This document shows positions 10,525-32,000 of a stretch of 32,000 nt of DNA, piece after piece. The notes below the pieces were generated by a model that saw only the letters and a program-made list of their open reading frames with translations, had not been told where the DNA came from and searched no databases. The position numbers were made by a program, and so were the translations under genes. This DNA comes from Candidatus Kuenenia stuttgartensis. Its GTDB lineage: Bacteria; Planctomycetota; Brocadiia; Brocadiales; Brocadiaceae. Numbering within the stretch: position 1 is the stretch's first letter; every line of letters begins with the position of its first letter. The DNA lies in assembly GCF_900232105.1 (NCBI RefSeq), contig NZ_LT934425.1, positions 480,001 to 512,000 on the forward strand, in the 5' to 3' direction.

Positions 10525-10642
10525 CCACCGTGGTGGGTGGGTCACGCCCCATAAGCGCTAACTTGTTTTATTGACAAATTTTATTCATCATGGTATTTTT
10601 ATGTTAATTATCCCGCTAATCACTCTATAGGAGGATAAAGCC

Positions 10643-15107: not shown

Positions 15108-16174
15108 GTTTCAATTCCTTATAGGTGCAATGAGACGTAGGAAAAAACTTGAAATAGTCCGAGACCACCACAGGTTTCAATTCCTTATAGGTGCAATGAG
15201 ACAATCCTTTTTGGAATACCTGTTGTTCCCGCAATCAAGTTTCAATTCCTTATAGGTGCAATGAGACCTGTTGTTCGCCTTCGTTATCACCCTGAACACT
15301 TTCGTTTCAATTCCTTATAGGTGCAATGAGACGATATCACAGAGTGTGAAATGGAGGGGGTCTTTATAGTTTCAATTCCTTATAGGTGCAATGAGACCCT
15401 ATACTTCTCAATAATTGGGAGAATTGTTTCTACGTTTCAATTCCTTATAGGTGCAATGAGACCAGCAGAAATGATCATGCTTGAGAAAATGTGCCACAGT
15501 TTCAATTCCTTATAGGTGCAATGAGACAAGGGTGCTATATAAATACGAGTGTATCTCTTTTAGTTTCAATTCCTTATAGGTGCAATGAGACATTCTCCCG
15601 TTCCAAGCGACGACCCAAAAATTCTCCGTTTCAATTCCTTATAGGTGCAATGAGACGGGGCAACTCTCAATGCAGATGGTACGGTAACGGGGTTTCAATT
15701 CCTTATAGGTGCAATGAGACTGTATGTACTCCAAAAATGTCTTTATTTTTCTGTCAGTTTCAATTCCTTATAGGTGCAATGAGACTACGACGCAGTGTAT
15801 ATATCTGCGCTTGCCCAATACGTTTCAATTCCTTATAGGTGCAATGAGACAAGTGCAAGCCACGTATTCGTAAGATGGAATGTAAGCGTTTCAATTCCTT
15901 ATAGGTGCAATGAGACGCCTCTCTAACATCAGAGGTTAGATCCCTACGTCCGTTTCAATTCCTTATAGGTGCAATGAGACCAAATTCGGTGTCCTTACTG
16001 TATTTCTTCTACCACGTTTCAATTCCTTATAGGTGCAATGAGACTTGTAAGTTTTCGCACGTAATTCCTGCCTTTTTTCAGGTTTCAATTCCTTATAGGT
16101 GCAATGAGACAGGGGATTCTCAGGCTACCAGTTCTAACATATCACGTTTCAATTCCTTATAGGTGCAATGAGAC
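15108..16174 (-). CRISPR. Array block C: 17 repeats
   Basis: Repeats start at 15108, 15174, 15239, 15304, 15369, 15434, 15499, 15563, 15628, 15692, 15757, 15822, 15888, 15952, 16016, 16082 and 16146. Confidence 0.95.
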
Positions 16175-18282: not shown

Positions 18283-18766
18283 GTTTCAATTCCTTATAGG
18301 TGCAATGAGACTTGTTGCGCAGAATGTATCATCTGCTCTCGTCCTCAGTTTCAATTCCTTATAGGTGCAATGAGACTAAAATATGAAAAATAAAATATTG
18401 TATTTTTTATTGTTTCAATTCCTTATAGGTGCAATGAGACTCTATTGAGGCCTATCTCCGCTTTTCCATAAATTATGTTTCAATTCCTTATAGGTGCAAT
18501 GAGACGGTTTCCATCGAGGGTGTCGGAATCGCCCCTGAGAAGTTTCAATTCCTTATAGGTGCAATGAGACATATGCCATTTGTTTTTGGCGGGCAGGCGC
18601 AAAAAAGTTTCAATTCCTTATAGGTGCAATGAGACAATAAGGCTGGATACCTCCGATAACCTCGGTATAAAGTTTCAATTCCTTATAGGTGCAATGAGAC
18701 GTTGTACAAAAACTTAATTTAGATTTATTTAAACAAAGTTTCAATTCCTTATAGGTGCAATGAGAC
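18283..18766 (-). CRISPR. Array block D (leader-proximal): 8 repeats
   Basis: Repeats start at 18283, 18348, 18412, 18477, 18542, 18607, 18672 and 18738. Confidence 0.95.
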
Positions 18767-19080
18767 CAGTTTTGTGGGTACAAATAATACAGAGACTTAT
18801 GACTTTTTTTCGTATGAAAAATGGCCATTTTGCTCGTCTACCTCTCATTATGTAAAAAACCCGGCAGGTCGACATGTAGTACTTAAACTGTCATCTCATG
18901 ACGGGATAACCTTCATTTCAATGTATCTAAATAGACCTGCAGAGACGTACGAACAGGTATTTACCCTAAGGTCGACAGGTTTTTTTATAATATTTAGCCA
19001 TCACGAAACACTTACTTATCCAAACAATGAAATACTTTTGTCGTATCATTGTATTCCAACAGTCAAAGCAAACCTAATAG
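18767..19080 (-). promoter_or_regulatory. Inferred CRISPR leader
   Basis: A 314-bp AT-rich non-coding stretch between the cas2 stop (19081) and the first repeat (18766). The position and orientation argument is given under the array. No promoter hexamers are called with confidence. Confidence 0.6.
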
Positions 19081-19347
19081 TCATAATATATTATCAACCG
19101 GTCTTTTGTCAAATCCAACAATCTCTTTATCCAGCCATTTTTCATTTCTTGATTTGAATACAATGAGTGAGTCCTTATCCTCCTCGTTCATGATCTTCTT
19201 TGCCTTTATCTTCAATTCTTCCAGTCTGGCTTCGGTAATTTCTCCCTCAAACACAGAATTTTGTATATGATGGAGGTAACCCCTGCAAAGCTTTAGCATC
19301 TTCGTGCATCGTTTCTGGTCCACATCGTACACAACAACAACGTACAT
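19081..19347 (-). CDS. cas2: CRISPR-associated endoribonuclease Cas2
   Basis: An 88-aa ORF starting MYVVVVYDV...QNSVFEG..., the typical Cas2 ferredoxin-fold start. An ATG start is preceded by GGAGAG. It lies adjacent to cas1 and the array. Confidence 0.9.
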   Translation of the reverse strand: MYVVVVYDVDQKRCTKMLKLCRGYLHHIQNSVFEGEITEARLEELKIKAKKIMNEEDKDSLIVFKSRNEKWLDKEIVGFDKRPVDNIL

Positions 19348-19359
19348 TGTTAATCTCTC

Positions 19360-19517
19360 CGTTCAAACAGATGAAACCGTTCAAGCCGGTTAAAGCCGTT
19401 TAAACCGCTTAAACCGTTTAAACCGTTTAAACCGCTTAAACCACTTAAACCGCTTAAACCACTTAAACCGCTTAAACCGCTTAAACCGCTTAAACCGCTT
19501 AAACCGTTCGAACGGTT
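19360..19517. repeat. 9-bp tandem repeat array a (about 17 units, CGYTTAAAC type) filling the cas1-cas2 gap
   Basis: Units read in register: CGTTCAAAC AGATGAAAC CGTTCAAGC ... (CGCTTAAAC/CACTTAAAC/CGTTTAAAC) x12 ... CGTTCGAAC. The array ends in the perfect palindrome AACCGTTCGAACGGTT. Confidence 0.9.
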
Positions 19518-19525
19518 ATGAAAAT

Positions 19526-20518
19526 TCACCACCAGATCTTAAATCCCTCATACCCTTGCTCACCAATCAGGTGTTTAACCAATTTATAACATTCCAGTCT
19601 TATAAGATACCGGTAAGAGACCTGCCTCTCAAGTTTCTTATGGCTGATAATTGTCTTCAGTTTCTCATCATATTCTTTAACAACGGTCTTTCTTCCCTTC
19701 TCATTAAGGTAACAGCAATTAACATCTGTCATAAAATCCTTCTCCGTAATCTGATGTCTGTTAAGTATGGTAAATATGGTTCTGTCGCTGAAAATAGGCT
19801 TAAAAACCTCCGCCATGTCGAGACTCAGGGAAAACCTCCGTTCACCCGGTTCATGGAGATAAGAGATCAGGGGATTTAACTGCGTATGGTATATTTCACC
19901 CAGACATGTCGTATAGACCATCGAGTTTAGATACGAGATCAAGGCATTAATCATATTGTCCGGAGGCTGCTTTACCCTGCGTTCAAATGCTATCTCCTGG
20001 TCAATAATGGTGGGCCACGCCTTGTAATACGTATTTCGGATGTTTCCTTCTATTCCCATCAACTCCTCCACGACCTCTGTTTTTTCGATCTGTGACCTGA
20101 AGCCTTCAATCGTACTGATATATTCATCCACTCCTTTTCCCCTGTTGCCATAATATCTCAGGTTCTTCAGGATATTGAAACTCGCTGCTTCGATAAACGC
20201 CCTTGCCAGGACAATTCTCTTCTGACGGCTCGTATAGTGGTTCACCTGCTTCACCAGGAGTTGCCCGGAGTTTAAGTATTCCCGCGGATAATAGCTGCCG
20301 GAATAATAACCATAGTAGTTGAATACATGCACCGGTATGCCTTTCTGCGCAAGATAATTAAAGAGTTTCGTATTGAAGTCAATCTCACCGAAAGCATAGA
20401 GGGCTTCTGTGTTCTCAATGGGTATTACGGCCTTAGAACCGTCTTCCTTTTCAAAGAAGATGGTATTTTCCTGTCGTTTCAAACGGCCGTTGTTAAAGAT
20501 GTAATAGTTCTGTTTCAT
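19526..20518 (-). CDS. cas1: CRISPR-associated endonuclease Cas1
   Basis: A 330-aa ORF. The N-terminus (YYIFNNGRLKRQENTIFFE...IPIENTEALYAFGEIDFNTKLFNYLAQKGIPVHVFNYYGYYSGSYYPRE) is characteristic of I-B-type Cas1. Confidence 0.92.
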   Translation of the reverse strand: MKQNYYIFNNGRLKRQENTIFFEKEDGSKAVIPIENTEALYAFGEIDFNTKLFNYLAQKGIPVHVFNYYGYYSGSYYPREYLNSGQLLVKQVNHYTSRQKRIVLARAFIEAASFNILKNLRYYGNRGKGVDEYISTIEGFRSQIEKTEVVEELMGIEGNIRNTYYKAWPTIIDQEIAFERRVKQPPDNMINALISYLNSMVYTTCLGEIYHTQLNPLISYLHEPGERRFSLSLDMAEVFKPIFSDRTIFTILNRHQITEKDFMTDVNCCYLNEKGRKTVVKEYDEKLKTIISHKKLERQVSYRYLIRLECYKLVKHLIGEQGYEGFKIWW

Positions 20519-20530
20519 AGTTTTAAAAAT

Positions 20531-20611
20531 AGTTTAAGCCGTTCAAACAGTTTCAACCGTTCAAGCAGAAAAACCATATCGGTTTAAACAGTTTGAACGG
20601 CTTAATCGGCG
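20531..20611. repeat. 9-bp repeat array b (about 9 units) in the cas4-cas1 gap, folding into a long hairpin
   Basis: The units are AGTTTAAGC CGTTCAAAC AGTTTCAAC CGTTCAAGC AGAAAAACC ATATCGGTT TAAACAGTT TGAACGGCT TAATCGGCG. The segment 20532-20558 is nearly perfectly complementary to 20581-20607. Confidence 0.8.
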
Positions 20612-20625: not shown

Positions 20626-21138
20626 TTACACCCAGCACATATCCCCATAACTACAATTCTTGCACATCTTCATCCTTTGTATCGGCGGAGGTAATTCGGC
20701 TTCTACAAGCACTTTGATTTCGCTTACTATTGCATGAATCTTCTCATCATCTCCCGGTTCCAAAAACACGTCCAGGGTCTTTCTGAGCTTTGGATAATTA
20801 ATTTTACCCGTAATGCCTTCTACGCCCTTCTGTTTCAGATACCAGAGGTAATACTTCAACTGCCAGATATGCGGCTCTTCCACCTTGTCCGACTTCTTTA
20901 CCTCGTGAATGACCCTGTCTTTCCCGATGAAATCAATCTTGATAGTGCCGTCAATCTCGATCTCCTTATTCTCCCGTTCGTACGATGTCTCGTGGATCAG
21001 CTTACCGAGGTAGACCGCATCGCTGTTGTGCTCCATTTCAATATTTTTGGTAAAATACCAGAGCTTCTTCCTGCAGAGGAAGTAATAGTTAATCTGGGTG
21101 CCGGTGAAGCGGATAGATGTTTGTTCTGTAGTGTTCAT
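20626..21138 (-). CDS. cas4: CRISPR-associated exonuclease Cas4 (RecB-like, 4-Cys)
   Basis: A 170-aa ORF with an N-terminal Cys (YYFLCRKKLWY), a D...EVKK nuclease motif and the C-terminal cluster CKNCSYGDMC. Confidence 0.88.
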   Translation of the reverse strand: MNTTEQTSIRFTGTQINYYFLCRKKLWYFTKNIEMEHNSDAVYLGKLIHETSYERENKEIEIDGTIKIDFIGKDRVIHEVKKSDKVEEPHIWQLKYYLWYLKQKGVEGITGKINYPKLRKTLDVFLEPGDDEKIHAIVSEIKVLVEAELPPPIQRMKMCKNCSYGDMCWV

Positions 21139-21151
21139 TATTTATATCCAT

Positions 21152-21541
21152 TCATTCTTTCAATTTTCTCAATATACTGGCAAACTCACTTTTGTTAAGC
21201 TTTCCCGTTGAAAGGTCCAGCATAGCATCGTAGAGTTTCCCCTGAGAATCTGAAATGCTGATTCCATTAAGTTCGGGAAAAACCAGCGCAGATACCAGAG
21301 CGGTTCGCTTATTACCGTCAACAAAAGGATGGTTTTTACTGATGTGAAATGCATAAGCCACTGCCATTTCACAAATATCGTTATGCAAGTACTCACCATG
21401 AAAAGATGCGTGGGGCATTGCAATAGCTGAAGATAAGAGGTTTATATCCCTTATCCCCGGCAATCCTCCATACAATCTCATCTGATTGCTATGTATATCA
21501 ATGACTTCGGCAAGGGTCAGAAAAAGGATATCTTTCATCAT
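21152..21541 (-). CDS. doc: Doc (death-on-curing) / Fic-family toxin
   Basis: A 129-aa ORF carrying the Fic/Doc motif HPFVDGNKRTA. Its start overlaps the upstream antitoxin stop (ATGA at 21538-21541). Confidence 0.88.
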   Translation of the reverse strand: MMKDILFLTLAEVIDIHSNQMRLYGGLPGIRDINLLSSAIAMPHASFHGEYLHNDICEMAVAYAFHISKNHPFVDGNKRTALVSALVFPELNGISISDSQGKLYDAMLDLSTGKLNKSEFASILRKLKE

Positions 21542-21765
21542 TCAGCCAGCTTCTTAAGTGTTTTTTCGTGTTTTTTATTTATTTTCACTAAAGCCGCTCT
21601 AAACTTTTTATCTCTATCCTTGTCATGAACCGGAGAAATAATAAGATTTTTCCCGTCAGTGGTGATTTCAAGTGGTGTATTCATATCAACCTTGAGGATT
21701 TCCAGTATGGGTTTATCAATAATTAATGCTGCGCTGTTACCGTGTGGGACCAGATTTTTAAGCAT
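21538..21765 (-). CDS. AbrB/SpoVT/MazE-fold antitoxin partner of Doc
   Basis: A 75-aa ORF. The N-terminus (PHGNSAALIIDKPILEILKV) has the swapped-hairpin AbrB-type pattern. AGGAGG lies upstream of the ATG, and the gene overlaps doc by 4 nt. Confidence 0.75.
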   Translation of the reverse strand: MLKNLVPHGNSAALIIDKPILEILKVDMNTPLEITTDGKNLIISPVHDKDRDKKFRAALVKINKKHEKTLKKLAE

Positions 21766-21885
21766 ATTACCTCCTGAAATGTAGCATTTTGTAAATTTTT
21801 AATGCCACTAAGACACCAGGCATCAAAGAAAATACTGATGACTTAGTGACTGTATAGCAACCTCGAATTTTCTTAACGTAAAATT

Positions 21886-21924
21886 ATGTATATACATTGT
21901 ACTACCATAATATACTTCGTTCAA
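21886..21924 (-). promoter_or_regulatory. Candidate sigma70-type promoter plus palindromic operator for the antitoxin-doc(-cas4-cas1-cas2) unit
   Basis: On the minus strand, TTGAAC (21924-21919), 17 nt, then TACAAT (21901-21896). The perfect 12-nt palindrome ATGTATATACAT (21886-21897) abuts the -10. The site is about 130 nt upstream of the antitoxin ATG. Confidence 0.4.
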
Positions 21925-22156
21925 TATTTCTTCCTATTTCAGTGTCTCAAAATTATTTTTGACAGGATTCACGGGATAAGCAGGATATTTTAATCATGTT
22001 CATACTGTCCATCCCTGTTTTGTGAAATTCGTTTTTCTTAGTGTCCATTCGTGGCTAAACCCCTCGTCTTCAACTTTTGTATAGAGAAGATTCGTTGGTT
22101 CGTTGTCATTTAATCCTCCTCATCGGTGAGACGTACCAATTCATTTGTAATACCCC

Positions 22157-22918
22157 TCAAACAATTTTCTTATATTGTGTGAAATGTTTGCTGCTCTGGA
22201 CAAAACTATAAGGAATAACTGTTTTTACCAATATTCGATGTTCACCAAGCTTAACTGTCCCTGAGCCATAAGTACTTATACGATCAAAACCATCTTTGGC
22301 CTTACACAATACTTCCCCAAAATCATCCAGGTATTGAACCCATTGAAACTTACCGGTCAACAATCGCTCCTCCGGCTGTGGAAGTGTGTATCCTTCGGGA
22401 AGATTACCTTTGCAAATCGAATCCTTAATATATTGCCAGAAAGAGCCTCTCTTTCCTATGCAATTAATGTGACTACCTACCCTTCTTATCAAAGATACTG
22501 CATCTCCTGAAAGACCATTAATCCCTATCGCCACTTTCAGTTCAGCATCGGTATAAAAGCAAAACTCACGATAAGCAATGGTGGGAACATAGAAGCCTTT
22601 CGGGGCATCCCTTTCTTCCTGACGAATTTTTATAAAGGTATTCTGCACGATACAACCTGCCGGTGGGCTAAATCTTATTTCGCAGCCTTTAATAAGATCA
22701 AATACCTGCCGTGCCTTGATTTCGGCATTATTTTCATCAAAGCCCCTAAAGCAAGCATCAATCAAGGTCATCTTAAAAGCATAGGGAGTTGGAATCAAAA
22801 GGGTCTTTCCGCCCTTGCTTGTAGCATGGGTCATTCGAAGGGAAAAAAGGCTCACCGGTAAATAGCTTAGAATGAGCCATTTCCCTATTCCCCGGTCAAT
22901 TAATTTTTCCTCAACCAT
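22157..22918 (-). CDS. cas5: Cas5 (Cascade subunit)
   Basis: Positioned after cas7. The N-terminal pattern is FSLRMTHATSKGGKTLLIPTPYAFKMTLIDA (F.R...P.P....G/A). The preferred ATG at 22918 is preceded by GGAGG at 5-nt spacing and lies 1 nt after the cas7 stop. The track ORF starts at ATG 22930. Confidence 0.7.
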   Translation of the reverse strand: MVEEKLIDRGIGKWLILSYLPVSLFSLRMTHATSKGGKTLLIPTPYAFKMTLIDACFRGFDENNAEIKARQVFDLIKGCEIRFSPPAGCIVQNTFIKIRQEERDAPKGFYVPTIAYREFCFYTDAELKVAIGINGLSGDAVSLIRRVGSHINCIGKRGSFWQYIKDSICKGNLPEGYTLPQPEERLLTGKFQWVQYLDDFGEVLCKAKDGFDRISTYGSGTVKLGEHRILVKTVIPYSFVQSSKHFTQYKKIV

Positions 22919-22919
22919 G

Positions 22920-23903
22920 TTAGCCTCCATAAGGTTGAACCTTGCATATTATATCTGCCATTACCCCGCTAAATGCACCAAGCCCGTCAAATGGTGTAAC
23001 TGCTATCGGGTCGCCGGTTGTGGTCCTATTCAGATTACCGGCAATCTTTTTTATCTCGTCTCGATAATTTGAATTCAGTCCGCTAAGAACGGGGGCAGGC
23101 AACGTGCTTGTAGATGTGGCTATAATGCCAGTGAAATCAAGGATATGCGGGTGTTGCGTATTGCGGTGCGCGCCGGTTGGTTTGATAAAGGTATTGAGCA
23201 CACTCTTCAAAAGGGCTTTTATCCTGGCCTGCCTATCAATACCATCCACATAAGCAAGCGTGATATCATTCCGGCCAACCTTATAAAGGTCTACATTCAC
23301 TACTACTGCGTATTGACCGGAAGATGCGGGACGGTGAAAGATATTCTGCCCAAGATTTTCTCCTGCACCGGAGCCTTTTCCACGTCCTTCAGGCACATAT
23401 TTGGCGTGGAAGTATGATTCTGTCCGTGTATTATCAGGACATCCCACAACCCAGCCAAACTCAATGGCTGATTTGCGGGAAAGTGATTTTGTCCCGGCCC
23501 ATCCTGTAAGCATTATCCCTTCGCAATCATCAATGATACATTTAAAGAGTATTTTATCTAAGATAAAAGGATCCTTTTTATTCTGTCTTTCAGCTTCCGT
23601 ATATTCATTTAAAGACATGACATCTTTCTCGTACTCTGCATCAAATTTAATTCTATTTGCGTTGAAAATATCGCAGCCCTTGCATAAGGGAAGGTTATTT
23701 GATTTTGCCTCCATAAACAAATGTTCTGCCTGAATATGCTTGAACATGTCACCGGAAACGGCATTGACCGTATGATTCTTGCCTGTTGCATCCACAATTT
23801 CAACCATCCGCGTCATCATGGTGTTTCCTTCGCTGCCTTCATTGTTAAGGGCGTGCATGTTCATCGTTACAATGCCTGAAATACTTAAAGAGTGCAGTTT
23901 CAT
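22920..23903 (-). CDS. cas7: Cas7 (Cst2/DevR/Csa2-like backbone subunit)
   Basis: A 327-aa ORF. The N-terminal motif ISGIVTMNMHALNNEGSEGN is the hallmark of DevR/Cst2-type Cas7. AAGGAGGG lies upstream of the ATG. Confidence 0.85.
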   Translation of the reverse strand: MKLHSLSISGIVTMNMHALNNEGSEGNTMMTRMVEIVDATGKNHTVNAVSGDMFKHIQAEHLFMEAKSNNLPLCKGCDIFNANRIKFDAEYEKDVMSLNEYTEAERQNKKDPFILDKILFKCIIDDCEGIMLTGWAGTKSLSRKSAIEFGWVVGCPDNTRTESYFHAKYVPEGRGKGSGAGENLGQNIFHRPASSGQYAVVVNVDLYKVGRNDITLAYVDGIDRQARIKALLKSVLNTFIKPTGAHRNTQHPHILDFTGIIATSTSTLPAPVLSGLNSNYRDEIKKIAGNLNRTTTGDPIAVTPFDGLGAFSGVMADIICKVQPYGG

Positions 23904-23905
23904 AA

Positions 23906-25612
23906 TTATTTACCCTCCTTGTTTGTTATCGTTGGATTATCGGTTTCAATCTTTGGCGCTCTTGCGTAGCCATAGGCCAAAAGAAGCATACCGACTAGTT
24001 CACTCTGGTCTTTCCCGTTATTTTCAATAAGAGATATTACCTGATCAAGGTCTTCTTTTGAAACGGTATGATATTTACCTTCAAGCCTGTTTGTAACTTC
24101 CCAGTTATAATCCTGAACAAACTCGGCCAACACCGGGACGAATTCTTTTGCCCCACCTTTAATTTTTTGCTTCCATTTTTGGGCTAGACCGAAACGTACA
24201 TCCCATTTCTTGTTGTTTTGTTGCTGTAACCACAGGGCTGTTATAGTAGCATTTCTAATAGCCCAGGCAACACTTAAGAATCCCGTATTTTCTACAATCT
24301 CTTTCATTCCATATCCCCTTTCAAAAAGTATCGTTAGATTTTCAGTAGAAAATTCTTTTACCCCTTCTTTTTTACCTCGTTTTTCCATAGTATGGACTGC
24401 AAATTTCGCCAAAAAATCAAGCAGGTCTGACACGCTACCAGTTGTAAGCCATTTTCTGTATTGCTGGAGAATGGGAACATCGCCGGAATGGGTTTCATTC
24501 AGAGAGCCAAGACATCCAGGTTTTTTCTGAGCATAGTCTCCGATATGCTCCCTAATTATTTCGATAAACGCAATTGCATCATCTTTATTTTCAATGCGAA
24601 ACCAGTTTGGAATAGGCAAAAATGCATCATTCATCAAGGCTGCCGCTGTTCCCATGCTTTTGAAATATGCTTGCCGCAATCCTCTTATAACCTCAGCAGG
24701 TCTACGTCCGCGCAAACTGATCTTTCCCATAGTATCTTGTACAACATCCGAATGTATTATCAGTTCTTCAGCCAGACGCAATGTGGCCTCTATGTCAAGC
24801 CTTATTCCACCCCACAGCCTCAGATCGAGAAGTTTTCCCCTGAGCATAGACAGCGCCTTCGGCCCTATTTCGGCAGGCTCAATGACAAAGAGTTTAAAAT
24901 CGTCGCCATTACGGTAAGGGAGCATTGCAGCAGAAGCCCCTCTAAATTTCATCCACTCGGCGAAAGGTTCTACGACTTCACTATTGATAGCGCTAGGTGA
25001 TTTGTAAATGGTCTTGGTTGCATGCAAACCTTTTCCTGATGAAGGATTAAAAAACTGGCTGTTGCTTACTTTAGGTATTTCAACCTGTTCAAGGCGATCC
25101 AACCGATTGAGGCGTTCAAGCCATACTAGTTCAGATTGAACCCATTTAAGGACTTTTTCAGGATTTTGAATCACCCATAGATAGACGTCTTTATCGGAAC
25201 TCCAGCCTTTTCGCATTGACTCAAGGATTGCCGAAGGACCGTATTCGCGATTAACGCTTTCAACTGGAGATAAGCCTTGCTCTTCAAGTGCTTTGTTTAA
25301 TGCTTCTTTTTTCTTTTTACTACCCTTTTCCTTTGCTTTTACCCGGCCTTGTTCCTCCTCATAATCCAGCACCATAGTACCCTGTGGTTTTTCCTTTTCC
25401 TTGCTTTTTCGCCAAATGTAGTAAAACCCGGGAGACGGTGGTCTCCATTGTACATCAGGCACATCCGATGAATACTCAATTTTAAAATGAGTTCCCCTAT
25501 CTTGGATAATTGTTCCAACCCCGGCTACTTCTTCAAGTAGGCCTGCGGTGCCTATGGCTCTTAAGGAATCGGCATAAGTCCCCGTTCCTTTTGGAATTTC
25601 CACAACCTTCAT
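23906..25612 (-). CDS. cas8: Large Cascade subunit (Cas8-like)
   Basis: Its size (568 aa from ATG 25612) and its position between cas3 and cas7 support the call. ATG 25612 is preceded by GGAGGAGAGG and overlaps the cas3 stop (ATGA). The track ORF extends to GTG 25684, inside cas3. I recognised no family-specific motif. Confidence 0.6.
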   Translation of the reverse strand: MKVVEIPKGTGTYADSLRAIGTAGLLEEVAGVGTIIQDRGTHFKIEYSSDVPDVQWRPPSPGFYYIWRKSKEKEKPQGTMVLDYEEEQGRVKAKEKGSKKKKEALNKALEEQGLSPVESVNREYGPSAILESMRKGWSSDKDVYLWVIQNPEKVLKWVQSELVWLERLNRLDRLEQVEIPKVSNSQFFNPSSGKGLHATKTIYKSPSAINSEVVEPFAEWMKFRGASAAMLPYRNGDDFKLFVIEPAEIGPKALSMLRGKLLDLRLWGGIRLDIEATLRLAEELIIHSDVVQDTMGKISLRGRRPAEVIRGLRQAYFKSMGTAAALMNDAFLPIPNWFRIENKDDAIAFIEIIREHIGDYAQKKPGCLGSLNETHSGDVPILQQYRKWLTTGSVSDLLDFLAKFAVHTMEKRGKKEGVKEFSTENLTILFERGYGMKEIVENTGFLSVAWAIRNATITALWLQQQNNKKWDVRFGLAQKWKQKIKGGAKEFVPVLAEFVQDYNWEVTNRLEGKYHTVSKEDLDQVISLIENNGKDQSELVGMLLLAYGYARAPKIETDNPTITNKEGK

Positions 25613-28035
25613 CCCTCTCCTCCTTTCTGGCTTCTTTGGTCTGCCAGCCTGAGCCTTCTTACGAGAAATACATAAAGAGGCCACAACCCGGTATCTTCGC
25701 TGTTTGGACCACTAAAAATTAAAAGATCGTCTTGAAAACTACGTTGGGTTAGTTTATCGGGGTTGTCAGTCAATGCAATGCCCTCAATAGAGGATGGCAA
25801 TGTTTCACTGACCCATTTCTTTGTGTCGTTAATAAGCCTAAAGTCTTCCAGCGATGCCGTAAATGCCCCATGATGTCTTGCTATAGCTGTCCAGGTTACA
25901 ACTGCATTAACACCAAAATTATCTCTCAACCACCCTGCCACTGAATATGCGCCTTCAGAAGCATGAGGCGGCTGTTTAGGAAACTTTTTCTTATTTTCAA
26001 AATCCATGTCTGGCGCGTAATCTGAATGAGCAAGGGGCTCGCCAGTCAACATCTGAGGGTTCTTGTGCTGCTGCCACTTTCTTACAGCCTCCTGCCACTT
26101 CATGGAGAGCTTTCCCACATCGTGTAGGGCGCAACAGACATCAGCCAGTGTTTCCAATTGGTTGGCTGACATTTTATATCGTTCGGCCAGTCGTGTTGCT
26201 GCATAGCTATAAAAAGGCTTCATTGCCCGGCACGCTGCAACTACTCTTTGAACATGCTCCCGGTAAGTTTCATAACTGATTTTGTACCGGGGAATAAGCG
26301 GCCTATCGAAGTATCTGATCTCTTCGTGACACCCCTTTACACCGATTTTCAAGCCAACGTCAGGGGAATAAGAAGCAAACTCCGGATTTATAACGACAAG
26401 CCATGAAGCGTTTCTGATCTGGTCTTTTGAAGTAATTCGTTCCCATCCGAAGGATGTCTCGGTTTCGTCTATAATATTGGCATTTTCAATAGGATACCAC
26501 GCAACCGTTTCCCCAAAGTCACGGCATTCTTCAAAAAACGGAGAAAGCTTATAAAGGCTCGAACGGGGAACTGACAGCATCCTCGGCCATTTGTTTTTAT
26601 CAAATCTCAAAACTGAAGGGTCGTTACAGATAACCACATTTATGGAAGCCACGTCCCGCACCAATTCTCTGACGGCAACTTCGTTGCGTCCGTCCATAGC
26701 CTCGTGAATCTTGGTTTTTAAAGAGTATTGATTTTGCCGGTAGGATTCCAGATGCCTTTCCTCAATGTTCGAATGCACCTTATCAAGTCTTTCAAGCTCT
26801 GAGTTAAAATCAAGGATTGCGCCATCCGACGGCAGCCGTTCCAGAACCTCTCTGGTACCTGAAATCAAGGCCTTATGGTCGTTCTCTCGATAGGGACCAA
26901 AATCAGGCAGGCCTTTTTCATTTGTTAGTAATTCATAAATCCAGACAGTTCCAATGCCACGCACACCTTCATATCTTGCACAACGCCCGGCACGCTGTAT
27001 AATGCTGTTCAGAGGGGCAATTTCTGTATGCAGGTTGTCCGCAGAAATATCTATACCTGCCTCAACAACCTGCGTGGTTACCAGGATTACATTCGTTTTA
27101 GTGGCTTCTTTTCCAAACCAACCCTTGAGTTTATCTTCTACCTTTTTTCGATCTTCTGAGTAAAACCTGCTATGAAGCAAGAAAACAGTGGTGTTGCTAC
27201 CTTCCAGGCGTTTCGCCATTTCTTCGTAAATATTCTGCGCCCTCGTAACGGAGTTGAGGATAATGATAGAACGGTTACCATTATGATGATCAAGGATATC
27301 GTTAATCGTGAGTGGTCTGTTTATCCAGCGGTACGCACGTTTTTTTTCTTTGTGAGATGGCAAACTCATTACTTCATCAGGAGTTAGACTGACAAACTGT
27401 CCTCCCAGTATCTCTTTTAATAAATCCAGACTCTTCGTCGTAAGTGTAGCCGTCATGATGACAAACTGGGAAAATGGTTTAAGCCTGTCCAGCATTTCTA
27501 CGGCCGTTCTCATTGCTTTATCGGACTCCAAAAGGTGGAATTCATCAAATACAATCAAACTCCCAAGCAATGCTCCGGCATTGATATTCCCAACTCTCTG
27601 CGGAAGAGAGACAGGACAATTAAGGTAAGAGGAAAGGCACTGGTCAACGGTTGTAAATATTACATCGCCTTCAAAAAAGGGATCGTCCTTTTGTTCACCG
27701 GTTTGTATTGTGATTACAAGTTCGCCTTTTTCACCCCTACGGGCATTTGGATCACACACTACCCTGAAACCACTTTTGCAACACGCTACCGTTTCAGCGT
27801 AAAGGGTAGTAGCTAATGTTCGAAGCGGCAAGACATAAATTAATCTATCAACAAACGTCGTGCCTTGTTTTTTTGCCCAAAGATACGGCAAAATAGCAGC
27901 CCATGTTTTCCCGCTGCCAGTAGGAGCGCGGAGAAAAATATTTCTGCCATCAAGAAGACGTTGTGCAACTTCTTCCTGATAAGGATAGGGGGCAAGTCCT
28001 TTATTGCTCATTAATTGATCGAAAAGTATTCTCAA
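25609..28035 (-). CDS. cas3: Cas3 helicase-nuclease with a C-terminal HD domain
   Basis: SF2 helicase motifs occur in N-to-C order: APTGSGKT, VFDEFH, MTATL, TQVVEAGIDIS, QRAGRCAR. HD-type motifs follow only after about residue 600 (ALHDVGK, LAHSDY, HASEGA, ARHHGAF). The start is either TTG 28035 (overlapping the abiEii stop) or ATG 28011. Confidence 0.9.
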   Translation of the reverse strand: MRILFDQLMSNKGLAPYPYQEEVAQRLLDGRNIFLRAPTGSGKTWAAILPYLWAKKQGTTFVDRLIYVLPLRTLATTLYAETVACCKSGFRVVCDPNARRGEKGELVITIQTGEQKDDPFFEGDVIFTTVDQCLSSYLNCPVSLPQRVGNINAGALLGSLIVFDEFHLLESDKAMRTAVEMLDRLKPFSQFVIMTATLTTKSLDLLKEILGGQFVSLTPDEVMSLPSHKEKKRAYRWINRPLTINDILDHHNGNRSIIILNSVTRAQNIYEEMAKRLEGSNTTVFLLHSRFYSEDRKKVEDKLKGWFGKEATKTNVILVTTQVVEAGIDISADNLHTEIAPLNSIIQRAGRCARYEGVRGIGTVWIYELLTNEKGLPDFGPYRENDHKALISGTREVLERLPSDGAILDFNSELERLDKVHSNIEERHLESYRQNQYSLKTKIHEAMDGRNEVAVRELVRDVASINVVICNDPSVLRFDKNKWPRMLSVPRSSLYKLSPFFEECRDFGETVAWYPIENANIIDETETSFGWERITSKDQIRNASWLVVINPEFASYSPDVGLKIGVKGCHEEIRYFDRPLIPRYKISYETYREHVQRVVAACRAMKPFYSYAATRLAERYKMSANQLETLADVCCALHDVGKLSMKWQEAVRKWQQHKNPQMLTGEPLAHSDYAPDMDFENKKKFPKQPPHASEGAYSVAGWLRDNFGVNAVVTWTAIARHHGAFTASLEDFRLINDTKKWVSETLPSSIEGIALTDNPDKLTQRSFQDDLLIFSGPNSEDTGLWPLYVFLVRRLRLADQRSQKGGEG

Positions 28036-28871
28036 GAAAAAATCTTTCCCAAAGTGTTTTTTAATTCATCTAAAACCCGGTCACTATCTGGTAACTCTCT
28101 CAAATGGCTACCTAAAGATGGTTTCCAATTTTCTTTTACTTGTTCCACCCCATGAAAAAAAGAATCAATTCTCTTGAATTCAATTTCTTTGAGTTTGCAT
28201 TTCTTTTCAAAAAGTAATGCAATTTCCTTAAATCTTAAACTCTCTGAACAAAAAATGGACAAATACCACAGGTCGTAATAATCGCGGGGCCATCCCCGCT
28301 GCAAAATGGTACGAAGCTTTTCCGCATATATCTCTTCGATACTATAACTTTGAATTTTTGCCGTGATATCTTTTGAATCAGAGTATAAATGGAAAATATT
28401 CTTTGAAACTGGAGGGGACAATATTGGTTCTCTTAGTGAAATATCGATCTTAATAGATGTCCTCCATCTTTCAGGAGGAACTATCTTGTCCCTATGTTTA
28501 GCTCCCCAAAAAGGGATTTTGAATTCATATCCCATTAACCGATCATTAGATTGCATATTTTTAATCTGAATAGGCCCAAATAAAATTCCTGCATTTTGGT
28601 AAATTATGTCATGTATTATCTCAAGTTCTTTTTTTATTTTTTCTCGCTCAACCTCTATTAGGCCAGAAAAATCAAGGTCTTCAGAAAATCGGAAATGTTT
28701 GAAATAAAGCTTGCGCAGGCAAGTTCCACCTTTAAAACGAAAGCACTCTTTAAAAAGACTGCGATTGTATAGCCCATTAAGATAGTGCCCAAGCACCCAG
28801 TCTTTATCTACTGTTTCTATAGGAACTCCCCATTCTACTGATTTTTTACTTAACTCCCTAAAAGGAATCAT
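28032..28871 (-). CDS. abiEii: AbiEii/AbiGii-family nucleotidyltransferase toxin (DUF1814)
   Basis: A 279-aa ORF. The N-terminal region (IETVDKDWVLGHYL...FKGGTCLRKLYFKHFRFSEDLDFSG) matches the conserved AbiEii NTase motifs. The ATG overlaps the abiEi stop by 1 nt (TAATG). Confidence 0.88.
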   Translation of the reverse strand: MIPFRELSKKSVEWGVPIETVDKDWVLGHYLNGLYNRSLFKECFRFKGGTCLRKLYFKHFRFSEDLDFSGLIEVEREKIKKELEIIHDIIYQNAGILFGPIQIKNMQSNDRLMGYEFKIPFWGAKHRDKIVPPERWRTSIKIDISLREPILSPPVSKNIFHLYSDSKDITAKIQSYSIEEIYAEKLRTILQRGWPRDYYDLWYLSIFCSESLRFKEIALLFEKKCKLKEIEFKRIDSFFHGVEQVKENWKPSLGSHLRELPDSDRVLDELKNTLGKIFS

Positions 28872-29668
28872 TATAAAGCAGTCCTTGCCATAGCATATAT
28901 CTCTGATTCTGTATGATTAACGATCAATCGCCACTTTTTCAGATGTTTACCCTCAGCCGAAGACAGAGGGTCGAGTAACGTATACTTAGGCAATAGAACC
29001 TGCGCAGCATTTGCCCGAAAATCTTCGAACCCTTTTAATTCTAATATTTCTGATAAATAGCCTAACCGCTTGATAAGTGTATTGTTCTCCATTTTTAACG
29101 CATGGTGCCATAATTTTCCCTTATCTAATCTTTCGTGCGATATAAAGAGACCTTTGACAGCCTCTGTAAAACCCCCAGCATATTCTGGTAAATCGAAACA
29201 ATCAACAATGGTCTTTTCCATATCAGTGATAAAATAAAAATCCCGACCAACCCATTCTTTTCTAATTCCAAAAAATTTATGCGGGCTTATAGTTATGAAT
29301 TGGTACCGAACATTGAGTATTTCCTTATTCTGCTTTCTCTTGCTCGTTTGAATATGAACAATGTTAGAAATTTGTTCTGTTAGCCCATAATAATTCAACG
29401 CTGAAGAATATGCTATCGCCGATGGTTCTATTAGTCTTGTCCCGATTAAGAACGAATCTACATCCCTATTGGAAAGGATATACTTTCCACGCTCTACCTG
29501 AGTAATCAATCCCTTTCGTTTAAGGTTCATTAACAGAGTTGTGCAATTCTTAAATAACCTAAAGGCTTTTATTTCTTTTGTTGAGAAAATAATGTTTCCT
29601 TTTTCAGAAAGGAAATTAAACAAATTTTTTTCTTCTACTGATATCCCTTGGGTATAAACACGTCTCAT
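28871..29668 (-). CDS. abiEi: AbiEi-family antitoxin / transcriptional regulator
   Basis: A 265-aa ORF directly upstream of and overlapping abiEii. It has an N-terminal wHTH-like segment (FSTKEIKAF...MNLKRKGLITQVERGKYIL) and a size typical of AbiEi. Confidence 0.75.
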   Translation of the reverse strand: MRRVYTQGISVEEKNLFNFLSEKGNIIFSTKEIKAFRLFKNCTTLLMNLKRKGLITQVERGKYILSNRDVDSFLIGTRLIEPSAIAYSSALNYYGLTEQISNIVHIQTSKRKQNKEILNVRYQFITISPHKFFGIRKEWVGRDFYFITDMEKTIVDCFDLPEYAGGFTEAVKGLFISHERLDKGKLWHHALKMENNTLIKRLGYLSEILELKGFEDFRANAAQVLLPKYTLLDPLSSAEGKHLKKWRLIVNHTESEIYAMARTAL

Positions 29669-29694
29669 AAGTTACCTTTTATGTAAACATTCCA

Positions 29695-29741
29695 TTGACA
29701 AAAACATAATTTAAATTACACAAAAGGGTATATTTTGTCAA
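29695..29741 (-). promoter_or_regulatory. Candidate abiE promoter with flanking inverted-repeat operator
   Basis: On the minus strand, TTGACA (29741-29736), 17 nt, then TAATTT (29718-29713). The inverted repeat TTGACAAAA (29695-29703) / TTTTGTCAA (29733-29741) brackets the -10. A further TTGACA lies at 29761-29756. The abiEi ATG at 29668 is about 45 nt downstream. Confidence 0.5.
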
Positions 29742-29837
29742 ACCGCCCTCTTTCTTGTCAACTCTTTTTTTGCGCCATCCACCCACGGATTTCCTGTCCA
29801 ATTGAATAATGGAACGATTATCTCCAATAAAAATAAA

Positions 29838-30020
29838 CGTTCAAACAGATAAAACCGTTTAAGCAGTTCAAGCCGATTAAGCCGTTCAAGCAGAAAAAGC
29901 AGTTCAAACTGTTTAAACCGAGGAAACCGTTCAAGCCGAGTAAACCGTTCAAGCCGTTCAAGCTGAAAAAGCGGTTTAAGCCGTTTGAACGGTTTAAACT
30001 GATTAAGCGAATTAAACTGC
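29838..30020. repeat. 9-bp repeat array c (about 20 units) between abiEi and the four-helix-bundle gene
   Basis: Strictly 9-periodic: CGTTCAAAC AGATAAAAC CGTTTAAGC AGTTCAAGC CGATTAAGC CGTTCAAGC AGAAAAAGC ... GGTTTAAAC TGATTAAGC GAATTAAAC. The last units supply the final codons and TAA stop of ORF 30012..30467. Confidence 0.9.
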
Positions 30021-30467
30021 TGAATCCTTTTTTGTATTCATTTTATTCATGATTTCATCCAGTGTCTCTTTCACACTCTTTCTCTTCGGCATCTTGTACT
30101 TGGATCCTTTGTACCTGCTGCCTTTCAGGTGATTCATGAAGTTGTTAATCATTATTGAGATACGCTTGCATTGTTCAATGAGGGGTTTTAATTCATTCTG
30201 GTCAATATAGTTCTGATCTCCTGCTATATACAACTGGCATCGTACCTCACCACAAGAACCTTTAGCAATTGATAAAAACTGTATGAATTCCTGGTTGCCG
30301 CCCCTTTCATAGCCTTCGGCTATGTTAGACATGATGGAGACAGATGCACGCCGGATCTGGTCTCTGAGGCCGTAGTCTTTTGAGAAGGTACCGTCTTTTG
30401 TAATCCCGTAAATCTTGTTTGTTAGTTCTCTTGCTGACTTCCAAACTTCAAGGTCTTCGAAGTACAT
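30012..30467 (-). CDS. Four-helix-bundle protein (TIGR02436 / 23S rRNA intervening-sequence protein family)
   Basis: A 151-aa ORF. The sequence (DLEVWKSARELTNKIY...LRDQIRRASVSIMSNIAEGYERGGNQEFIQFLSIAKGSCGEVRCQLYIA) is the canonical pattern of this family. AGGAGG lies before the ATG. Confidence 0.85.
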   Translation of the reverse strand: MYFEDLEVWKSARELTNKIYGITKDGTFSKDYGLRDQIRRASVSIMSNIAEGYERGGNQEFIQFLSIAKGSCGEVRCQLYIAGDQNYIDQNELKPLIEQCKRISIMINNFMNHLKGSRYKGSKYKMPKRKSVKETLDEIMNKMNTKKDSAV

Positions 30468-30486: not shown

Positions 30487-30612
30487 ATTAAGCCGGTTAA
30501 AAATGGTTTAAGCAGTTTAAGCAGTTTAAACCGCTTAGACCGTTCAATCCGATTAAACAGTTTGAGCTGTTCAAGCTGTTTGAATGGTTTCCACAGTTTG
30601 AACCACTTCCAC
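30487..30612. repeat. 9-bp repeat array d (about 14 degenerate units), spanning the cas6 / four-helix-bundle gap and the last 14 codons of cas6
   Basis: The units are GGTTTAAGC AGTTTAAGC AGTTTAAAC CGCTTAGAC CGTTCAATC CGATTAAAC AGTTTGAGC TGTTCAAGC TGTTTGAAT GGTTTCCAC AGTTTGAAC. The cas6 tail VVQTVETIQTA and its stop are encoded within the array. Confidence 0.8.
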
Positions 30613-31548
30613 ATACCCACACCCCATGCTATTATTTTGCCCAAAGCCGCATTCCAGACCGATCCTGATTAATTCTTTTGGGCCGGTTACGGTAAAGGGC
30701 TGTAATGTCCCTTTTATATGGATGGGATTCACACTGCCGTCCAATCCCTTCTTGAAGACGGTAAACTGTTTCACAGACTTCCCTTTTGTTTCAAGAAAAC
30801 AAAATTTCAGAGTTTCTCCCTGATACGGTTTACCAAAGAGGGTCTCGTACTTATGCATAAGGTTTTGATTCAAGAGTTCTTCGTATCCGTTATCACCCGG
30901 GAACAAATAAATATCCTGCTGACCCGGAGGCATGGGTTTTTTAATGAAGAGGGGAGATTCTAAGGGTTTTAATGATAAACCGTTTAAACCGTTTAAGCCG
31001 TTTAAGCCGTTTAAGCCGTTTAAGCCGTTTAAGCCGTTTAAGCCGTTTGAACTGTTTACGCTGTTTGAACTGCTTGAACCCGTTGTTGTCTCCAACGGAT
31101 CCGTCAGGGTTTCTACCCGACATACGCTGAATGTTTGTTTGCCAAGCCGCACCTCCTGGCCCTCTCCGAATATACCCTCTATCAAGTGTTGAATGAATTT
31201 ATCTACGGGTGATGCAATCTGAAAGGAAAGGGTGAAGGGGGAAAGATGAGAGGATTTAAAGGAGAAACCGTTTAAGCCGTTCAAGCCGAGAAAACGGTTT
31301 AAACCGTTTAAACCGTTTAAGCGGTTTGAACGGATGATTTTGATAGGACAGTAGAATGATATACCTGAAAAGACAAAGAGCTTAAACCGCTTGTCTTTTT
31401 TATAGGCGAAGCCCTGCTGATGAAGCCATTGGGCATAGTCAGGGTTTGACATGGACAGGAAACTATAGATGATGGCCTGTATCTGGTGTTGATAGTTGAA
31501 GTCGATGATGCCGGATTTATCTGCCGTGAAGGTTATTTTTATCCTCAT
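30571..31548 (-). CDS. cas6: Cas6 endoribonuclease carrying repeat-encoded insertions
   Basis: It starts MRIKITFTADK... (the track ORF starts 22 codons earlier, at ATG 31614). It has the C-terminal glycine-rich loop GLECGFGQNNSMGCGY. Two GLN-rich inserts are encoded by 9-bp arrays. Confidence 0.8.
   Translation of the reverse strand: MRIKITFTADKSGIIDFNYQHQIQAIIYSFLSMSNPDYAQWLHQQGFAYKKDKRFKLFVFSGISFYCPIKIIRSNRLNGLNGLNRFLGLNGLNGFSFKSSHLSPFTLSFQIASPVDKFIQHLIEGIFGEGQEVRLGKQTFSVCRVETLTDPLETTTGSSSSNSVNSSNGLNGLNGLNGLNGLNGLNGLNGLSLKPLESPLFIKKPMPPGQQDIYLFPGDNGYEELLNQNLMHKYETLFGKPYQGETLKFCFLETKGKSVKQFTVFKKGLDGSVNPIHIKGTLQPFTVTGPKELIRIGLECGFGQNNSMGCGYVEVVQTVETIQTA
30977..31084. repeat. 9-bp repeat array e (12 units) inside cas6, in frame
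   Basis: AAACCGTTT x2, AAGCCGTTT x6, then GAACTGTTT ACGCTGTTT GAACTGCTT GAACCCGTT. On the minus strand this translates to ...SSSSNSVNSSNGLNGLNGLNGLNGLNGLNGLS... Confidence 0.9.
31264..31335. repeat. 9-bp repeat array f (8 units) inside cas6, in frame
   Basis: GAAACCGTT TAAGCCGTT CAAGCCGAG AAAACGGTT TAAACCGTT TAAACCGTT TAAGCGGTT TGAACGGAT. This translates to ...RSNRLNGLNGLNRFLGLNGLNGF... Confidence 0.85.
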
Positions 31549-32000
31549 AATTAATGACACCAAAACTTGCTCTTGGCTTGTATAGAGATTACAGGAAATA
31601 GACAGGAAAATCATTTTTCAAGGGTAGCTGGCTAAGTATAATAGCACTTTACAGGAACAAATCAATACAAAATCATGTTGCTACGTCTTAGAATAAATGC
31701 TCCAAAAATGCCCAATTAGTCTCAGAATATTTGAGTCTAATACCCAGCAAATGATTTGAAAAATCTTACCCAGCTACCCCGCCTTTTTTTTATCCTGCGT
31801 AAGTATTTCACTTGATTTTTTGTTCACGTTAAGAAAAATACATCGTTTACCCCGTTAGAAAGAAGTTCCGTCCGTAAGGCGGAGTAAAGCCTCATTAAAT
31901 AGTTTGGAAGGGGTTAAAACCACTTCCAAACTTCCTAACGGCGGTTTACTTCCCAGTTCCCCGTTTTCACGAGGACAAGTTTTGTAAGATTTTTCCGGAA

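Follow-up and report, generated by a model that had tools for sequence, protein, structure and literature searches.

An AbiE toxin-antitoxin pair linked to a type I cas lineage and an exchangeable antitoxin-Doc cassette in the CRISPR-Cas locus of Candidatus Kuenenia stuttgartiensis

Introduction

AbiE systems are toxin-antitoxin (TA) systems in which the bacteriostatic AbiEii is neutralised by AbiEi without direct interaction, and they confer phage resistance. In this work, a predicted pair of this kind is described ahead of cas3 in Candidatus Kuenenia stuttgartiensis, together with a second, antitoxin-Doc pair ahead of cas4. The stretch analysed is 32,000 nt of contig NZ_LT934425.1 (hereafter the window); all coordinates are window-based, and the genes of interest all lie on the minus strand. 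The window pair shares with the AbiE systems of Lactococcus and S. agalactiae, and with the related MenAT of M. tuberculosis, a bicistronic, overlapping abiEi-abiEii arrangement, a DUF1814 toxin and an antitoxin with a winged helix-turn-helix (wHTH). In S. agalactiae, the operator has been defined experimentally as 11 bp-N27-11 bp, and AbiEi alone represses the promoter through it (PMC3985639). On the other hand, the characterised AbiE systems are stand-alone two-gene operons, whereas the toxin gene of the window shares overlapping codons with the cas3 gene that follows it, and the subfamily as a whole is embedded in cas loci.

TA genes inside cas cassettes are already known. Whether CRISPR immunity is mechanistically tied to dormancy or suicide modules has been debated since the immunity-dormancy coupling hypothesis was put forward (PMC3632139), and the RNA-based CreTA is the clearest experimental case so far. 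CreTA was described in type I cas loci, namely I-B of Haloarcula and I-F of Acinetobacter, where it makes Cascade addictive (PMC10097628; reviewed in PMC12737573). It has in common with the present locus a TA module nested in a type I cas locus and a proposed role as guard of the interference genes. However, the antitoxin of CreTA is a CRISPR-repeat-like RNA that needs Cascade, whereas the window pair consists of two proteins (type IV, AbiE), and nothing in the window ties antitoxicity to Cas proteins. A CreTA/CreR-like RNA element, with a creA in which degenerate CRISPR repeats flank a pseudo-spacer close to the cas promoter, was rejected, as the best matches to degenerate CRISPR repeats in all intergenic regions (13-17 of 29 positions) remained at background level (mean 15.5, 95th percentile 17). 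Rfam models gave no match in the window at gathering thresholds.

Protein TA pairs, sometimes several, occur inside the cas cassettes of Sulfolobales, in which interspersed vapBC pairs, up to four per cassette, were suggested to help keep the modules (PMC4390879). This likeness fits the variable cas5/cas4 junction described below. According to that review, the vapBC pairs are many and varied and lie in large variable regions, whereas the AbiE of the window is one dedicated subfamily at one position and, unlike vapBC as described, carries a conserved operator and start/stop coupling across a cas clade. An earlier, sequence-only reading of the window knew of no described case in which two protein TA pairs each lead a cas sub-operon; the nearest precedent is Sulfolobales vapBC, which is less specific. 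In the full-text literature, with subscription journals outside coverage, no description was found of a clade-wide AbiE subfamily dedicated to cas operons.

The abiE pair and its coupling to the interference genes

The type IV antitoxin and wHTH repressor gene abiEi (28871..29668, 265 aa) was recognised by PADLOC (PDLC02267, 4.4e-82), and the DUF1814 nucleotidyltransferase toxin gene abiEii (28032..28871, 279 aa) by both Pfam (PF08843, 1e-40, residues 35-268) and PADLOC (PDLC02304, 7.2e-83, full length). AbiEii also matches AbiGII in the PDB (9hlo_B, 1.6e-6). According to the AbiE motif definitions (hG[GS]...DhD, a KLxAxxxR-like motif and D..D; PMC3985639), nucleotidyltransferase motifs I-IV are intact (KGGTCL...FSEDLDF, EKLRTILQR, PRDYYDL), and G48 G49, D65 D67, E184 K185 R187 and D197 D200 are invariant in 40 homologues. 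The Pfam search of AbiEi gave no match, and its residues 16-127 match the S. agalactiae AbiEi structure (6y8q_A, 1.7e-4) and 9hlo_A. The protein is larger than the solved ones (265 versus 195-196 aa), and the sequence match is confined to this N-terminal portion. Both genes are under purifying selection, with omega (dN/dS) of 0.09-0.12 for abiEi and 0.17-0.20 for abiEii. By its sequence, the pair qualifies as AbiE: a DUF1814 toxin with motifs I-IV is preceded by an overlapping COG5340-type AbiEi with a predicted N-terminal wHTH.

The dense coupling of abiEi-abiEii-cas3-cas8-cas7-cas5 claimed by the sequence-only reading was found at every junction. The abiEi stop and the abiEii start share TAATG (28873-28869), and the abiEii stop TGA (28034-28032) overlaps the TTG at 28035, the first ATG of cas3 (28011) lying 20 nt downstream of the stop. 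The N-terminus MRILFDQL read from TTG 28035 aligns with the ATG- or GTG-started Cas3 N-termini of relatives; on this conservation ATG 28011 was rejected, and TTG 28035 is likely the real start of cas3 (25609..28035, helicase domain N-terminal, HD domain C-terminal), overlapping the abiEii stop as TTGA. The cas3 stop overlaps the start of cas8 (23906..25612) as ATGA at 25612-25609, with a strong AGGAGG ahead. The gap between cas8 and cas7 (22920..23903) is 2 nt, and that between cas7 and cas5 (22157..22918) is 1 nt if cas5 starts at ATG 22918. On the coding strand, none of the three intervals abiEii-cas3, cas5-antitoxin and doc-cas4 contains a terminator-like site.

The claim that each TA pair heads its cas module stands as regards tight coupling to cas3 and cas4, but abiE does not open the locus: it is preceded on its strand by cas6, a 23S_rRNA_IVP gene and a conserved mini-open reading frame (mini-ORF). 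The complete order on the minus strand is cas6, the IVP gene, a 9-bp repeat array, abiEi-abiEii-cas3-cas8-cas7-cas5, a 390-bp gap, antitoxin-doc-cas4, cas1, cas2 and the CRISPR array, and this layout was identical in every Kuenenia assembly read.

Distribution of abiE among related cas loci

A search with Cas8 returned 240 homologues, and a profile scan with one genome per species gave 53 related loci, which were annotated with the window proteins (L numbers denote these and the further loci compared below). The abiEi-abiEii pair lies directly upstream of cas3 in L007, L011-L015 and L017 (Brocadiaceae, Nitrospirota, Omnitrophota and unclassified genomes) and between cas3 and cas8 in L018-L020 (genomes labelled Deltaproteobacteria or Pseudomonadota) and L144. 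In a neighbour-joining tree of Cas8 and Cas7 with 54 tips, the loci with abiE fall in one clade (15 of its 18 tips, compared with 0 of 36 outside), which spans Planctomycetota, Nitrospirota, Omnitrophota and the genomes labelled Deltaproteobacteria or Pseudomonadota. The overlap of the abiEii stop with the cas3 start, by 4-20 nt, recurs in all nine loci with that adjacency, and in L018, L019, L144 and L145 the gap between abiEii and cas8 is 11 nt. In the neighbour-joining tree of AbiEi and AbiEii, the pairs linked to this cas lineage form their own clade, and the sister group consists mostly of free-standing pairs, plus the type I-B-embedded L085 and L061. Three AbiEii homologues at 46-52% identity whose contigs were read were all inside such cas operons, two with the compact order cas6-abiEi-abiEii-cas3-cas8-cas7-cas5-cas4-cas1-cas2 and one with cas6-cas3-abiEi-abiEii-cas8-cas7-cas5. 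All AbiEii homologues of at least 46% identity with visible context (fetched loci or contigs read) are in a cas operon.

In the synteny comparison suggested by the sequence-only reading, AbiE is not a chance neighbour of this cas lineage, given one clade in both trees, the 9/9 overlap with cas3 and the conserved operator layout (see below), and the link is deeper than was first supposed. Cas and AbiE distances are correlated (Mantel r = 0.81, p = 2e-4); strict co-phylogeny was nevertheless rejected and co-speciation is not claimed, because block-wise exchange is evident (see below). As a separate observation, in the cas3-abiE-cas8-cas7-cas5 subclade (L144, 8782-13306) type III RAMP genes come directly after the effectors in place of an adaptation module.

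More distant relatives were collected as an outgroup, and not as a census, by a profile scan of metagenomes, in which the AbiEii relatives among the matches listed have at most 44% identity. The 80 distant AbiE pairs so listed (28-44% identity) are mostly free-standing. Some lie in canonical type I-B operons, as cas7-abiE-cas5 (L080), cas3-abiE-cas4 (L085), cas6-abiE-cas1 (L131) and abiE-cas4 (L061), with gaps or overlaps of 4-17 nt; among the matches listed, 44 loci extend for at least 1 kb past abiEii, and 3 of these are embedded in this way. It seems that AbiE pairs tend to take up a place ahead of cas sub-operons.

The control region upstream of abiEi

The sequence-only reading had placed a good promoter, bracketed by an inverted repeat, upstream of abiEi. 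The string TTGACA-17-TAATTT is indeed present (29741-29713, minus strand), but its -10 hexamer is poor and agrees with TATAAT at only three of six positions; a consensus promoter scan left it unlisted and listed an upstream TTGACA at 29761 instead. This putative promoter is kept here with a weak -10. The inverted repeat TTGACAAAA/TTTTGTCAA is also present (29741-29733 and 29703-29695) but is not the one conserved across relatives. As an operator it was rejected: it is kept only in the closest abiE alleles (L015) and degraded in L012, and the recurrence of TTGACAAAA at two unrelated places counts against such a role.

A different, operator-like inverted repeat, TACCCTTTTGTGTAA-N29-TTACATAAAAGGTAA, spans 29672..29730 on the minus strand (arms 29730-29716 and 29686-29672) and is the sole pair of this motif in the window. 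The distal arm TACCCTTTTGTGTAA lies within the promoter spacer and the -10, and the proximal arm TTACATAAAAGGTAA covers the ribosome-binding site of abiEi. The geometry of the best inverted repeat is alike in 10 of 14 related loci: between the end of the proximal arm and the ATG lie 1-8 nt, the spacer measures 29-39 nt, and the sequences of the two arms co-vary from locus to locus. A TA(T/A)T(T/A)A element follows the distal arm in relatives. The layout of this putative operator is comparable to that of S. agalactiae AbiE, in which paired inverted half-sites are about 40 bp apart (PMC3985639).

The conserved mini-ORF, (V/M)PLFNWTGNPWVD, lies immediately upstream (29738..29827, minus strand; conserved core 29815-29777). 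In Kuenenia its ATG is replaced by GTT, with TTG 29827 as a possible start, and its stop falls inside the -35 hexamer. It is found upstream of abiEi in L007, L011, L012, L015 and L017. In L009 and L010, which lack abiE, it precedes cas3 by 10-60 nt, so that abiE sits exactly between the mini-ORF and cas3. Differences between loci fall mostly at third positions. The mini-ORF might encode a leader peptide.

Block-wise exchange of both TA cassettes

By comparing the window with L015, synonymous divergence (dS) was 0.30-0.32 for abiEi and abiEii and 0.33-0.45 for the antitoxin and doc, versus at least 1.8 for cas3, cas8, cas7 and cas5. Between about 29800 and about 28130, the window and L015 share 90-95% nucleotide identity, which drops to about 68% where abiEii ends (3'). 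The comparison with L007 is the mirror image, with about 60% over the abiE block followed by 90-94%. A second exchange block (21150..22020, minus strand) includes the promoter, the 5' untranslated region and both genes of the antitoxin-doc pair; it is 87% identical to L015, compared with about 74% in the flanks, and ends at the doc stop codon. The exchange of abiE alleles takes place between homologous cas loci, always within the cas-linked AbiE clade and always in the same slot, and a generic regulatory or guard role therefore fits better than a specific partnership with Cas proteins.

The antitoxin-doc cassette and the cas5/cas4 junction

The second pair follows the 390-bp gap. The doc gene (21152..21541, 129 aa) encodes a Fic/DOC-family toxin (PF02661, 4.9e-18; TIGR01550 DOC_P1, 2.8e-15, 56.6 bits, above the cut-off of 38.65). 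Its predicted HPFVDGNKRTA motif (21331-21302) agrees with HxFx(D/N)(A/G)NKR, and together with the Fic/Doc fold assignment this identifies it as Doc at the level of sequence. The antitoxin gene (21538..21765, 75 aa) is AbrB/MazE-like by our reading of its GNS motif; it is not Phd/YefM, as neither PF02604 nor any other Pfam family matched, and only TIGR02609 doc_partner was hit, below threshold (5.6e-5, 23.4 bits, cut-off 55.9). The pair shares with Phd-Doc of phage P1 and with chromosomal Doc modules an HxFxDGNKR-motif Doc, a small upstream antitoxin and an ATGA overlap (here at 21541-21538, as first read), and the palindrome at its promoter would be consistent with autoregulation as in Doc modules. 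It differs from Phd-Doc in its antitoxin and in being joined to cas4 (20626..21138) by a 13-nt spacer, which the sequence-only reading had correctly placed between the doc stop and the cas4 ATG at 21138.

The promoter TTGAAC-17-TACAAT, proposed earlier as touching a palindrome, was found as described: the control region covers 21886..21924 on the minus strand, with the promoter at 21924-21896 overlapping the palindrome ATGTATATACAT at 21897-21886. The sequence TACAATGTATATACA is conserved in L015 and L011 despite a differing upstream context, and TACAAT with the overlapping palindrome TGTATATACA is kept in the only two other loci that carry the pair (L011 and L015). As the promoter and palindrome are kept while the context differs, the doc cassette brings its own control region. 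The downstream unit, read earlier as running from the antitoxin to cas2, holds in gene order, but its coupling is loose past cas4: the cas4-cas1 gap is 107 nt and the cas1-cas2 gap 178 nt, both filled with 9-bp tandem repeats.

The sequence-only reading had named close relatives with the same cas operon but lacking the TA pairs as a finding that would speak against it, and for Doc this is the case: the pair is shared by only two related loci and is not a conserved partner of cas4. The cas5/cas4 junction carries MazE-MazF plus Phd-ParE, ending 3 nt before cas4, in L009; MNT-type nucleotidyltransferases in L011 and L007; PIN and TumE in L013; a HEAT+SEC-C protein in L012 and L015; and no insert in L014, L016, L140 and L142. 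Across these loci, the Doc pair appears as one of many interchangeable TA cassettes at a variable landing site. The HEAT+SEC-C protein (about 300 aa; HEAT repeats followed by a SEC-C motif at the C-terminus) is encoded in L012 (13680-14627), L015 (8530-9447) and L017 (4853-5752), with a remnant in L011 (about 14380-14420). Its gene lies either ahead of abiEi or between cas5 and cas4, and the window lacks it.

Subtype of the cas genes and other features of the window

The presence of cas3, cas8, cas7, cas5, cas6, adaptation genes and an array identifies, by gene content, a type I CRISPR-Cas system. A Kuenenia comparative-genomics paper called the cluster type I-B and left the TA genes unmentioned (PMC7709395). 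However, neither a Cas8b signature nor an N-terminal HD domain in Cas3, which define I-B, was found: Cas8 (568 aa) scores only with the Cas8a profile (PADLOC, 3.2e-40), Cas5 with Cas5a (3.1e-65), and Cas3 carries its HD domain at the C-terminus, as I-G does. Only Cas1 (19526..20518; TIGR03641, 1.6e-139) and Cas2 (19081..19347; PADLOC Cas2b, 2.2e-39) are of I-B type. Cas7 is of DevR/Csa2 type (PF01905, 3.7e-78), and Cas4 matches PF01930 (1.7e-56). Cas8 gave no match in Pfam, NCBIfam or PDB sequences, and an assignment through solved structures was abandoned since neither Cas8 nor Cas7 has a PDB sequence match. It seems preferable to treat the locus as a type I variant without an assigned subtype. 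More distant effector relatives carry long cas1 ORFs (about 390-600 aa), which may be Cas4-Cas1 fusions.

The cas2-proximal CRISPR array (18283..18830, minus strand) has the transcribed-strand repeat GTCTCATTGCACCTATAAGGAATTGAAAC, ends in the handle ATTGAAAC and is transcribed in the direction of the cas genes. Insertion sequences (IS) have cut the array into four pieces (10237-10535, 12653-13063, 15368-15527 and 18283-18830), and DDE transposase genes are located at 10643-11746, 13141-14877 and 16299-17627. In the last of these, DDE_Tnp_1_assoc and DDE_Tnp_1 domains are joined to an N-terminal region that is DruA-like (Druantia) and Mom-like, so that, unusually, a defence-associated domain is fused to a transposase. 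A 1.6-kb insert splits cas1 in assemblies L001 and L006.

Nearly all intergenic gaps of the cas locus are filled with a 9-bp tandem unit, GGCTTGAAC / GGTTTAAAC on the minus strand, in arrays at 19359-19513, 20527-20568, 29838-30008, 30506-30529, 30976-31066 and 31265-31331, the last two inside cas6; Tandem Repeats Finder (TRF) reported no arrays with a 9-bp unit elsewhere in the window. The copy number varies among Kuenenia assemblies, and L007, L010, L015 and L017 (Omnitrophota) have these repeats at the corresponding junctions. The cas6 gene (30571..31614, minus strand; Pfam Cas_Cas6_C, 3.7e-21, plus Cas6_I-A) carries these expansions in frame (the TRF arrays 30976-31066 and 31265-31331), and its product has 347 aa compared with 254-271 aa in relatives. 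Between cas6 and abiE, the 23S_rRNA_IVP four-helix-bundle gene (30012..30467, minus strand; PF05635, 4.2e-40) is inserted, bordered by the arrays at 30506-30529 and 29838-30008 (about 170 bp). It encodes 151 aa here, whereas the gene calls of several other Kuenenia assemblies give 82 aa. This bAvd-like gene recurs in L010 (6818-7318), L011 (15743-16111), L012 (15346-15723), L016 (14004-14363) and L017 (4378-4776), after cas6 or between cas4 and cas1, and resembles a small mobile cassette. Outside the cas locus, 7-bp tandem repeats (GCTCATG x28, then CAGCTAT x9; 4180-4439) lie over a short ORF (4191-4472) located between two PA14-domain genes (1271-4162 and 4480-6474).

Discussion

We favour, as probable though well short of certain, the explanation that the cas-linked AbiE is a long-standing accessory whose AbiEi-repressed promoter feeds cas3-cas5, while the antitoxin-Doc pair is a mobile cassette. 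AbiE would have been acquired once at the base of the clade and kept upstream of cas3, or of cas8 in the rearranged subclade. The interference genes would most likely be co-transcribed with the pair, at least partly, from the AbiEi-repressed promoter as abiEi-abiEii-cas3-cas8-cas7-cas5. Depletion of AbiEi would then increase Cas3/Cascade output and, under the same condition, release the AbiEii nucleotidyltransferase. Provided that AbiEii is toxic, the pair could benefit CRISPR immunity by guarding the interference module through protein-based addiction and/or by backing it up with abortive infection. The antitoxin-Doc pair, with its own promoter and palindrome, would occupy a permissive cas5/cas4 boundary, and the reading of doc into cas4 in this species would be a local arrangement and not a conserved design.

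The sequence-only reading went further and proposed that both cas modules are slaved to TA circuits. In its favour, both pairs are intact and under purifying selection (omega 0.09-0.20), they are coupled to the downstream cas gene, and their promoter palindromes are conserved. As proposed, it is supported in part, since Doc is not a conserved partner, abiE was lost or deleted in four relatives and the cassettes recombine. Several observations weigh against the favoured explanation as well. L009, L010 and L016 are nested tips without abiE, and L008 is an abiE deletion derivative that keeps the promoter, the operator, the first abiEi codons and the last ~125 nt of abiEii ahead of cas3; the cas genes of all four are intact, so abiE is dispensable and addiction can be escaped. 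The Cas distance between the window and L007 is 0.13 and the AbiE distance 0.43, with the reverse for L012/L015. Since abiE and cas alleles recombine, there is no sign of allele-specific co-adaptation, which weakens a strict 'slaved' reading. As cas6 and the mini-ORF precede the pair on its strand, an older promoter may add to its transcription by read-through. Promoter-like sites are not enriched in the region (29 found, 26.1 expected from shuffles); as such matches are as common in shuffles, single promoter calls, including that upstream of abiEi, are weak, and the real evidence is conservation across loci. The trees are neighbour-joining trees of p-type distances with no bootstrap support. 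Finally, in strain CSTR1 (>99% average nucleotide identity; KsCSTR_13230-13290), Cas1 shares 98.8% identity with its KUST and MBR1 counterparts, but the neighbouring Csh2, Cas5h and Cas3 list no KUST/MBR1 homologue, and Cascade proteins were detected in the proteome (PMC7709395, supplementary file 4). This published table suggests that the interference module, with abiE, differs within one species. The CSTR1 proteome was accordingly set aside as expression evidence: the detected Cas proteins appear to come from a different interference module and are uninformative on this operon.

It could be argued that both pairs are selfish TA cassettes in a defence island, tolerated at module boundaries, and that their coupling is a by-product with no role in CRISPR function. 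The recombination boundaries are sharp, and the synonymous divergence within them is much younger than that of the flanking cas genes; unrelated TA types occupy the cas5/cas4 junction of relatives, several loci having none; abiE was lost or deleted four times with no cas decay; IS elements, the IVP gene and repeat arrays have likewise invaded the locus; and vapBC pairs are interspersed in Sulfolobales cas cassettes according to the review (PMC4390879). Exchange within one clade and one slot also keeps this explanation alive. However, a purely selfish element would be expected in many other contexts too, whereas AbiEii homologues of at least 46% identity with visible context are always cas-linked; moreover, AbiE forms a single clade in both trees, was retained across several phyla and after repositioning in the operon, and conserves its overlap with the downstream cas start. 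We regard the selfish explanation as unlikely, though it deserves serious attention.

Two further explanations concern what the pair does and whether it drives the cas genes at all. AbiE might have been exapted and no longer be a TA system, with AbiEi as a dedicated transcription factor of the operon and AbiEii acting on a CRISPR-related substrate, for example by tailing nucleic acids or modifying tRNA in response to Cascade/Cas3 activity. Long retention in a fixed position, the conserved operator, intact catalytic motifs, strong purifying selection and the separation of the cas-linked clade from free-standing AbiE would all agree with this. Yet in domain content, size, gene order and operator layout this is an ordinary AbiE pair, the free swapping of alleles between divergent cas modules argues against a specific physical Cas partnership, and the pair is dispensable in four relatives, so that we consider exaptation improbable. 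Similarly improbable, in our view, is that cas3 and cas4 are driven by their own promoters within the 3' ends of abiEii and doc, in which case the TA operons would be transcriptionally independent of them despite the close spacing. Weak matches inside doc, TTAACA-16-TATATT (21198-21171, 10/12) just upstream of cas4 and TTGCCA-18-AAGAAT (21183-21154), and the expression of cas3 from elsewhere in the abiE-less L009 and L010 are compatible with it. Against it, no terminator-like coding-strand hairpin follows abiEii or doc, no promoter was listed in the last 250 nt of abiEii, the overlapping stop and start codons are conserved in 9/9 loci, and the L008 derivative keeps the abiE promoter and not any internal region.

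The locus is a protein-based and readily testable candidate for the coupling of CRISPR immunity to dormancy or suicide modules, with a well-understood type of AbiEi repressor-operator ahead of cas3-cas8-cas7-cas5. Relatives provide natural variation for this purpose, as abiE is present, moved, deleted with the promoter kept, or absent. The boundary between the interference and adaptation modules serves as a landing pad for interchangeable TA cassettes, which bears on how cas modules are shuffled and retained, and TA genes should be expected as part of the operon when this cas variant is annotated or transplanted. Tentatively, and with rather less confidence, we hypothesize that a domesticated AbiE is a built-in part of this type I lineage, in which the repressor AbiEi would set the expression of Cas3/Cascade and the nucleotidyltransferase AbiEii would halt the cell once the operon has been lost, silenced or overwhelmed. 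If true, CreTA would have a counterpart made of proteins, adaptive immunity would be directly hard-wired to abortive infection, and the recurrence of AbiE in canonical type I-B operons (L061, L080, L085 and L131) would make such domestication a general strategy.

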